Translations under genes and position numbers: made by a program
Source of the DNA: Escherichia coli
GTDB lineage: Bacteria > Pseudomonadota > Gammaproteobacteria > Enterobacterales > Enterobacteriaceae
Length of the DNA stretch: 64,000 nt
Assembly: GCF_003334405.1 (NCBI RefSeq)
Contig: NZ_QOWM01000003.1
Reading direction: 5' to 3' (one strand)
Shown: positions 6,450-45,273 of the stretch, one piece after another
Layout of the letters: every line of letters starts with the position of its first letter
How positions within the stretch are numbered: position 1 is the stretch's first letter
Notes under the pieces: model-generated
What the model was told of the DNA's origin: nothing
Databases searched by the model: none
Seen by the model: only the letters and a program-made list of their open reading frames with translations

Positions 6450-7628
6450 TTAACCCTGTACTTTTACCTGTCCGGCGGCGTGCTTCGCGCGTTCAATGGC
6501 GTCAACAACACTCTCTGCAGTAGCCAGTGCCACCCCCAGACGACGGCTGCCATCAATTTCCGGCTTACCAAATAAACGAATCTGCAAATCTGCGCCTACG
6601 GCATTCTGCACATTATCAAACGTGACATTCTGACTGGTCAGTTGTGGCAGAATAACGGCAGAAGCTGCAGGACCATACTGACGGATCCCGCCAACCGGAA
6701 GTCCGAGGAAGGCACGTACATGCAGGGCAAACTCTGAGAGATCTTGAGAAATTAACGTCACCATCCCGGTATCATGTGGACGAGGGGAGACCTCACTGAA
6801 AATCACCTCATCACCACAGACAAATAGCTCGACACCAAACAACCCATAACCGCCCAGTGCCAGCACCACTTTACGGGCAATCTCCTGCGCACGTTCAAGG
6901 GCAAGCGGGCTCATTTGCTGTGGTTGCCAGGATTCACGGTAGTCGCCATCTTCCTGGCGATGACCTACTGGTGCACAGAAATGGACGCCATCCACCGCGC
7001 TGACGGTTAGCAGGGTAATTTCGAAGTCAAACTTAACGACGCCTTCAACAATTACGCGGCCCGCTCCGGCGCGACCGCCTTGCTGAGCGTACTTCCATGC
7101 CTGAGCAAGTTGCTCTGCAGAACGAATAAACGTCTGCCCCTTGCCGGAAGAGCTCATCACCGGTTTTACAATGCAGGGATAGCCAATGTCAGCAACCGCC
7201 TCGCGGAAAAGGCTTTCGCTATCGGCAAAACGATAAGTGGAAGTGGGCAGCTGCAGCTCTTCTGCCGCCAGGCGACGGATACCCTCGCGATTCATCGTTA
7301 ATTTCGTTGCGCGAGCGCAGGGGACAACATTCAGTCCTTCCTCTTCAAGTTGGATCAGCATATCGGTGGCAATAGCTTCGATCTCCGGCACGATATAATG
7401 TGGTTTTTCCAGTTCAACCACACGGCGTAATGCATCACCATCAAGCATATTAATGACATGGGAGCGATGCGCGACATGCATGGCTGGTGCGTCGGCATAG
7501 CGATCGACGGCAATCACCTCTACGCCGAGACGCTGACACTCGATTGCCACTTCTTTACCCAGTTCACCGGAGCCTAATAACATCACGCGAGTTGCTGCCG
7601 GACGCAGCGCAGTGCCTAATAACGTCAT
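6450..7628 (-). CDS. purT: Formate-dependent GAR transformylase (PurT)
   Basis: Track ORF 392 aa, ATP-grasp fold, [44 protein letters not shown]... Confidence 0.95.
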
Positions 7629-7665
7629 AACGAATATCCCCTGATTAATTCCGCGCGCAGTATAA

Positions 7666-7681
7666 ACGAAAACGTTTGCGT
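7666..7681. promoter_or_regulatory. PurR box upstream of purT
   Basis: acgaaaacgtttgcgt is a near-perfect match to the PurR operator palindrome ACGCAAACGTTTGCGT, 40-55 nt upstream of the purT start. Confidence 0.55.
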
Positions 7682-7724
7682 GTGTCTTTATTGCTGATGT
7701 TGATTTCTCAACCGAAAAGAAATA

Positions 7725-7744
7725 TACTGTATAAAATCACAGTT
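7725..7744. promoter_or_regulatory. LexA (SOS) box upstream of yebG
   Basis: tactgtataaaatcacagtt fits CTGT-N8-ACAG; yebG is a known SOS-inducible gene. Confidence 0.6.
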
Positions 7745-7761
7745 ATTATGAGAGGCTGCAA

Positions 7762-8052
7762 ATGGCGGTTGAAGTTAAATACGTAGTCATTCGTGAGGGC
7801 GAAGAGAAAATGTCGTTTACCAGCAAAAAGGAAGCCGATGCTTATGACAAAATGCTTGATACGGCGGATCTGCTTGACACCTGGCTGACAAATTCTCCAG
7901 TGCAAATGGAAGACGAGCAACGTGAAGCCCTTTCGCTATGGCTGGCAGAACAAAAAGATGTGCTGAGCACCATTCTGAAAACCGGCAAATTACCGTCCCC
8001 ACAGGTCGTCGGTGCTGAATCCGAAGAGGAAGATGCCTCACACGCGGCCTGA
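7762..8052 (+). CDS. yebG: DNA damage-inducible protein YebG
   Basis: Track ORF 96 aa, MAVEVKYVVIREGEEKMSFTSKKEADAYDKMLD... Confidence 0.9.
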   Translation: MAVEVKYVVIREGEEKMSFTSKKEADAYDKMLDTADLLDTWLTNSPVQMEDEQREALSLWLAEQKDVLSTILKTGKLPSPQVVGAESEEEDASHAA

Positions 8053-8070
8053 AGCAACTTGCGCTCCTGA

Positions 8071-8475
<405 letters not shown>

Positions 8476-45142: not shown

Positions 45143-45273
45143 CATTTTGTCCTCATTATACTTCCATTTTCGTGCTGCAAAGACTGCCACAATGTGAGGT
45201 CGCCGTCACCACTTCAACTGGCGAAAGCGCCCTCATCCTGACATAATCCCTGTTCAAATCAACAGGGGGTAGT

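Follow-up and report, generated by a model that had tools for sequence, protein, structure and literature searches.

The 133 bp between purT and yebG in Escherichia coli are almost certainly the known back-to-back promoter region of these two genes, in which two simple-repression switches operate independently of each other, one exerted by PurR on purT and one by LexA on yebG. The window, which is the whole stretch of 64,000 nucleotides of E. coli DNA that was analysed, had earlier been read from its letters alone as holding a near-consensus PurR operator and a CTGT-N8-ACAG SOS box in this spacer, and thereby two unrelated regulons controlled back to back. This sequence-only reading is borne out by matrix scores, by Cho 2011 and by Belliveau 2018, with the refinement that the two controls are independent. 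The features of the region are as follows, counted from the first letter of the window.

6450 to 7628, minus strand: purT coding sequence, an open reading frame of 392 amino acids with the RefSeq name purT, formate-dependent GAR transformylase.
7659 to 7664, minus strand: predicted purT -10 hexamer TATACT (consensus scan, AAGACA-18-TATACT; Shimada 2014; conserved beside the PurR box across genera).
7666 to 7681, no strand assigned: PurR operator ACGAAAACGTTTGCGT, a 16-bp imperfect palindrome (consensus, matrix, ChIP-chip, Sort-Seq and conservation).
7683 to 7688, minus strand: predicted purT -35 hexamer AAGACA (consensus scan; Shimada 2014).
7700 to 7705, plus strand: predicted yebG -35 hexamer TTGATT (consensus scan, TTGATT-17-TATACT; Shimada 2014).
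7723 to 7728, plus strand: predicted yebG -10 hexamer TATACT (consensus scan; Shimada 2014), its final 4 bases within the LexA box.
7725 to 7744, no strand assigned: LexA (SOS) box TACTGTATAAAATCACAGTT with the CTGT-N8-ACAG core at 7727 to 7742 (pattern, matrix and published yebG box).
7750 to 7755, plus strand: probable yebG ribosome-binding site GAGAGG, read from the sequence, with the ATG 6 bp downstream.
7762 to 8052, plus strand: yebG coding sequence, an open reading frame of 96 amino acids with the RefSeq name yebG, DNA damage-inducible protein YebG.

Over 7400-8100 the sequence agrees with E. coli K-12 MG1655 at 100% identity, and a genome search found this stretch in all 5,426 of 5,426 complete E. 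coli genomes. The RefSeq annotation places edd, eda (kdgA), yebF, yebE and ptrB in the neighbourhood of the gene pair. The names purT and yebG given to the flanking genes from the letters alone agree with RefSeq and with NCBIfam equivalogs, the purT protein matching NF006766 and TIGR01142, both above their curated cut-off, and the YebG protein matching NF007475 with 206 bits against a cut-off of 161. The claimed length of 133 bp likewise coincides exactly with the open reading frame coordinates, the purT start codon on the minus strand ending at 7628 and the yebG ATG standing at 7762, which leaves 7629-7761 as spacer. The GAGG of the probable yebG ribosome-binding site is conserved in the alignment of compact spacers described below. 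An Rfam scan of 7300-8200 with an E-value of at most 1 matched no family and thus suggests neither a riboswitch nor a small RNA for the spacer, and no terminators were found across 7500-7900.

PurR is a repressor of the LacI/GalR family that takes hypoxanthine or guanine as corepressor. Its operator in the spacer, 37 bp from the purT ATG, matches the PurR consensus ACGCAAACGTTTGCGT, central CG included, with a single mismatch, and none of 100 shuffles of the window contained a match to this consensus with one mismatch or fewer. Position-weight-matrix scans for PurR and LexA together with published ChIP data had been proposed as the check on the two operators, and both boxes stand well clear of the rest of the window on leave-one-out matrices. 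For PurR the matrix was built from 27 sites of the Cho 2011 ChIP-chip table with the purT site left out, and ACGAAAACGTTTGCGT scored 23.87 bits on it, the runner-up in the window reaching 12.93. The operator outscores all 27 training sites (range 9.7-21.5 bits), although the agreement among these, as among the LexA boxes used below, is inflated because they were themselves picked by motif within ChIP or induced regions. From the exact score distribution the single-position probability of the PurR box is P = 1.4e-9, and matches this strong are expected 8.8e-5 times per 64 kb and 1.6e-7 times in the 133-bp spacer. The operator also agrees with every specified position of the ChIP-derived PurR motif ACGNAAACGTTTGCNT.

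Published occupancy and genetics point the same way. Table 1 of Cho 2011 has an entry for purT among the PurR ChIP-chip regions, its motif being identical to the operator, and the log2 enrichment of this region was 2.00 with adenine versus 1.02 without. In the same work purT was counted among the genes that PurR represses directly, and it was derepressed in a purR deletion. According to Belliveau 2018, Sort-Seq mapped the purT repressor site between -35 and -10, the repressor footprint appeared with adenine and was gone in the purR deletion, and PurR was recovered on the site by DNA-affinity mass spectrometry, for which hypoxanthine was needed.

The CTGT-N8-ACAG core attributed to an SOS box, CTGTATAAAATCACAG, is present at 7727-7742 inside the 20-mer TACTGTATAAAATCACAGTT, and this 20-mer ends 17 bp from the yebG ATG. 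The gene that it precedes is a classic LexA-dependent SOS gene. The bare CTGT-N8-ACAG pattern occurs twice in the window against 0.79 occurrences expected, and at least two were seen in 19 of 100 shuffles; the pattern alone is not significant, but the full 20-mer is. On a LexA matrix made from 17 boxes upstream of UV-induced genes (Thomassen 2010), with the yebG box left out, the 20-mer scored 20.60 bits and the runner-up in the window 11.88. The yebG box thereby falls inside the range of the training boxes (12.8-28.8 bits, median 22.6). The exact score distribution gives P = 7.3e-8, and matches this strong are expected 4.7e-3 times per 64 kb and 8.3e-6 times in the spacer. A search with the idealised LexA 20-mer TACTGTATATATATACAGTA allowing at most three mismatches had no hit at all. 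The yebG box has five mismatches to this string, each of them at the final base or within the variable centre, and a consensus-string search is therefore the wrong test, for which reason the matrix was used.

An identical LexA 20-mer upstream of the UV-induced yebG was given by Thomassen 2010, who also placed yebF under full LexA control. In a 2024 study of AZT exposure, yebG was induced 4.4-fold by AZT and showed a 9.7-fold lexA dependence, and Belliveau 2018 confirms for yebG the sites of LexA and RNA polymerase as well as induction by mitomycin C. In Salmonella the yebG box lies 17 bp from the ATG as in E. coli, induction by nalidixic acid was 41-fold, and a single-base variant of the box alters expression.

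The other CTGT-N8-ACAG match in the window, CTGTTCAAATCAACAG at 45250-45265, is found between yoaB and yoaA, directly before the start of yoaA, and scores 6.9 bits on the LexA matrix. In the 2024 study yoaA had a heterology index of 13 and a weak lexA dependence, and the match probably represents the weak box already known for yoaA.

A consensus scan for sigma-70 promoters found one promoter-like site per strand in the spacer, and the same two hexamer pairs were predicted for it by Shimada 2014 in genomic SELEX with RpoD holoenzyme. In the purT promoter the PurR box takes 16 of the 18 bases between -35 and -10; the -35 hexamer is partly conserved within the Enterobacteriaceae and not beyond. 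In the yebG promoter the LexA box begins within the -10 hexamer, of which it takes in the final four bases, and reaches over the expected start site. A TTG situated 23-25 bp upstream of the LexA box is conserved across genera, including those in which dbpA stands upstream, and the TA directly 5′ of the LexA 20-mer is conserved to at least 95% among 76 distinct sequences, above the first two positions of the box itself. Such conservation of the TA fits positions -12 and -11 of a -10 hexamer, and together with the conserved TTG it supports TTGATT/TATACT as the yebG promoter. For yebG the exact hexamers are predictions that draw on the scan, Shimada 2014 and conservation. Transcription would be expected to start at about 7735 on the plus strand for yebG and at about 7652 on the minus strand for purT. 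In Belliveau 2018 the RNA polymerase site of yebG lies 9 bp downstream of a computational annotation from 1997; TTGCTG at 7691, 9 bp upstream of TTGATT, would fit this 9-bp shift. From centre to centre the PurR and LexA boxes are separated by 61 bp, and 11 bp lie between the -35 hexamers (7688 to 7700).

The conservation of the layout was followed in 80 loci obtained by a YebG search with one genome per species, among them Escherichia, Citrobacter, Salmonella, Kosakonia, Klebsiella, Raoultella, Cedecea, Erwinia, Pantoea, Serratia, Yersinia and others. The LexA box upstream of yebG was retained in 79 of the 80 loci, at a distance of 14-38 bp and with 16.9-29.5 bits; the PurR box upstream of purT was retained in as many, at 35-87 bp and with 18.8-23.8 bits. 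A compact spacer of 128-141 bp was found in 59 loci, the MG1655 reference counted. When these 59 spacers were aligned, the best-conserved blocks were the PurR box, the purT -10 hexamer and the LexA box, and the most variable part was about 7689-7720, reaching from between the -35 hexamers to near the yebG -10 hexamer. The sole exception among the 80 loci was Yersinia nurmii, where the upstream DNA has been replaced.

In Y. nurmii unrelated DNA stands upstream of yebG (2440-2500 of locus L054), purT is not nearby, and the LexA box is reduced to its right half (ACAG) with a score of 7.6 bits. These features suggest that a rearrangement had its breakpoint within the LexA box, with a possible loss of SOS control. 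Variation was also seen closer to K-12. Other Escherichia lineages (L002, the GTDB E. coli representative, and L003-L005) carry yebG boxes stronger than the 20.6 bits of K-12, TACTGTATAAAAATACAGTT in L002 scoring 26.4 bits and a box ending in AAATTACAGTT 23.2 bits, and in these lineages the PurR box ends in C and not T. By analogy with the single-base variant of Salmonella, such natural variants of the yebG box could change basal yebG expression.

In some genera the two genes are no longer adjacent. The gap between purT and yebG is 1.7-2.1 kb in Yersinia, Serratia, Chimaeribacter and Edaphovirga, and in the two split loci whose open reading frames were read it holds a 460-amino-acid frame (Y. 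pestis L078, 1025-2407; S. quinivorans L065, 1030-2412), which in Y. pestis matches the equivalog of DbpA, an ATP-dependent RNA helicase. In the split loci the LexA box lies in the short dbpA-yebG spacer and the PurR box remains beside purT. Klebsiella spallanzanii carries an insertion between the two promoters, a dispersed intergenic repeat of 127 bp (L048, 2306-2432) that doubles the spacer to 261 bp and leaves both boxes intact. This repeat, which we take to be ERIC-like, occurs in E. coli genomes at a median of 6 copies each, none of them under an annotated feature. Splitting the pair thus parts neither box from its gene, and this speaks against the adjacency of purT and yebG being one regulatory unit. 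In Y. pestis the TATACT near the PurR box is displaced by about 13 bp, and the operator may there sit differently relative to the purT promoter.

That one or both boxes are functionless chance matches can be considered practically excluded and was rejected. The bare CTGT-N8-ACAG pattern is indeed no rarer than chance, but the full-length matrix scores are far above chance expectation, as their score-distribution probabilities show, both boxes persist in 79 of 80 loci from several families of Enterobacterales although the spacer around them has diverged, and published occupancy and genetics back both of them. A single operator shared by the two genes, of the ssb-uvrA type, was likewise considered and rejected, there being two operators, each over its own promoter, that can be parted by dbpA or by a repeat, and the Sort-Seq features in the accessible part of Belliveau 2018 being directional. 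More subtle would be a coupling of the two promoters that links the SOS response to purine supply without a shared operator. Firing of yebG on LexA release could then alter purT through supercoiling or polymerase crowding, PurR binding could affect yebG, or both could share an interaction with H-NS or sigma-S. Such coupling would tie DNA damage to purine synthesis and would be of modest interest. The short distance between the -35 hexamers speaks for it, as do the retention of the compact layout in many genera, the H-NS annotated in the spacer by Shimada 2014, and the RpoS holoenzyme SELEX, whose strongest peak in the genome is at the 5′ end of purT and which peaks again in the spacer. Against it, 61 bp separate the centres of the operators, each operator covers no promoter but its own, and neither box is lost where dbpA (about 1.7-2.1 kb) or the 127-bp repeat parts the genes. 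In the accessible part of Belliveau 2018 the same spacer was studied by Sort-Seq in both orientations, and regulation was directional and apparent only in the 60-bp region belonging to each gene. The available text of the AZT study mentions purT solely as an SspA-dependent gene, and yebG is absent from the available text of the PurR regulon paper (Cho 2011). We regard coupling as improbable.

There is a possibility, smaller than even and yet well above that of coupling, that two repressors give an incomplete account and that H-NS, sigma-S holoenzyme, SspA and possibly cAMP-CRP act here as well; this would be compatible with two switches since it adds inputs and does not exclude them. Effects of cAMP and H-NS on yebG were reportedly described by Oh and Kim in 1999. 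H-NS was marked in the spacer by Shimada 2014, and purT was constitutively SspA-dependent in the 2024 AZT study. Genomic SELEX with RpoS holoenzyme had its genome-wide maximum, 390-fold, in the 5′-proximal part of purT, and the yebG/purT spacer held another peak of 63-fold (Shimada 2017); the two correspond to about 7560 and 7680 of the window as estimated from the published MG1655 coordinates. No sequence feature accounting for the sigma-S SELEX peak was found in the 5′ part of purT or in the spacer. Nor does conservation favour further inputs, for about 7689-7720 is the least conserved part and the spacer holds no extra conserved block for another sequence-specific site, and the Sort-Seq features in the accessible part of Belliveau 2018 are RNA polymerase, PurR and LexA only.

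Two independent simple-repression switches therefore remain the preferred reading, which no finding contradicts, and the following mechanism is proposed. The purT promoter points leftward, with the PurR operator filling its 18-bp spacer between -35 and -10. When purines are plentiful, PurR with hypoxanthine or guanine would bind there and keep RNA polymerase off, and purT transcription would go down. The yebG promoter points rightward, and a LexA dimer over the end of its -10 hexamer and the expected start site would block initiation. Upon DNA damage, RecA-stimulated self-cleavage of LexA would lead to induction of yebG and, by read-through, of yebF. The occupancy by PurR, the purR dependence, the LexA dependence and the damage induction have been demonstrated in the published work above; we infer steric exclusion of the polymerase as the mode of repression at both promoters.

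The operators, the regulators and the promoter layout of this spacer were already known (Lomba 1997 as cited in Belliveau 2018; Cho 2011; Belliveau 2018), and the 2018 paper even devotes a figure to them. With its two simple-repression promoters set back to back, the region makes a clean textbook example and carries little weight as a discovery. A small addition comes from the comparison across genera, namely that each operator accompanies its gene where the pair has been split.

Compared with the PurR operators of the pur regulon (purF, purHD, purL, purMN and others), the purT box is likewise a 16-bp palindrome with a central CG, and it is one base away from the purHD and cvpA-purF sites. It sits between -35 and -10, as do the sites of 44% of PurR targets (Cho 2011). 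Nothing of substance distinguishes it from the other sites of Cho 2011, and it has the highest leave-one-out score. It thus shows the features of its operator family, being a palindrome with a score consistent with the PurR matrix, overlapping a promoter of nucleotide metabolism and being conserved with its gene. The yebG box shares the CTGT-N8-ACAG core and the AT-rich centre of the E. coli LexA boxes at recA, sulA, umuDC, dinI and others, and like these it overlaps the -10 hexamer and the expected start site and belongs to a damage-inducible, lexA-dependent gene. Its core, its score within the matrix range, its promoter overlap and its conservation with yebG are those of the LexA family, and its strength is middling, with a published heterology index of 6.3 (2024 study) and 20.6 bits against the training median of 22.6. 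Among divergent SOS pairs, ssb-uvrA likewise has a short common control region with a LexA box, but there the one LexA box is shared by both genes, whereas the box in front of yebG serves yebG only and purT has its own PurR operator.
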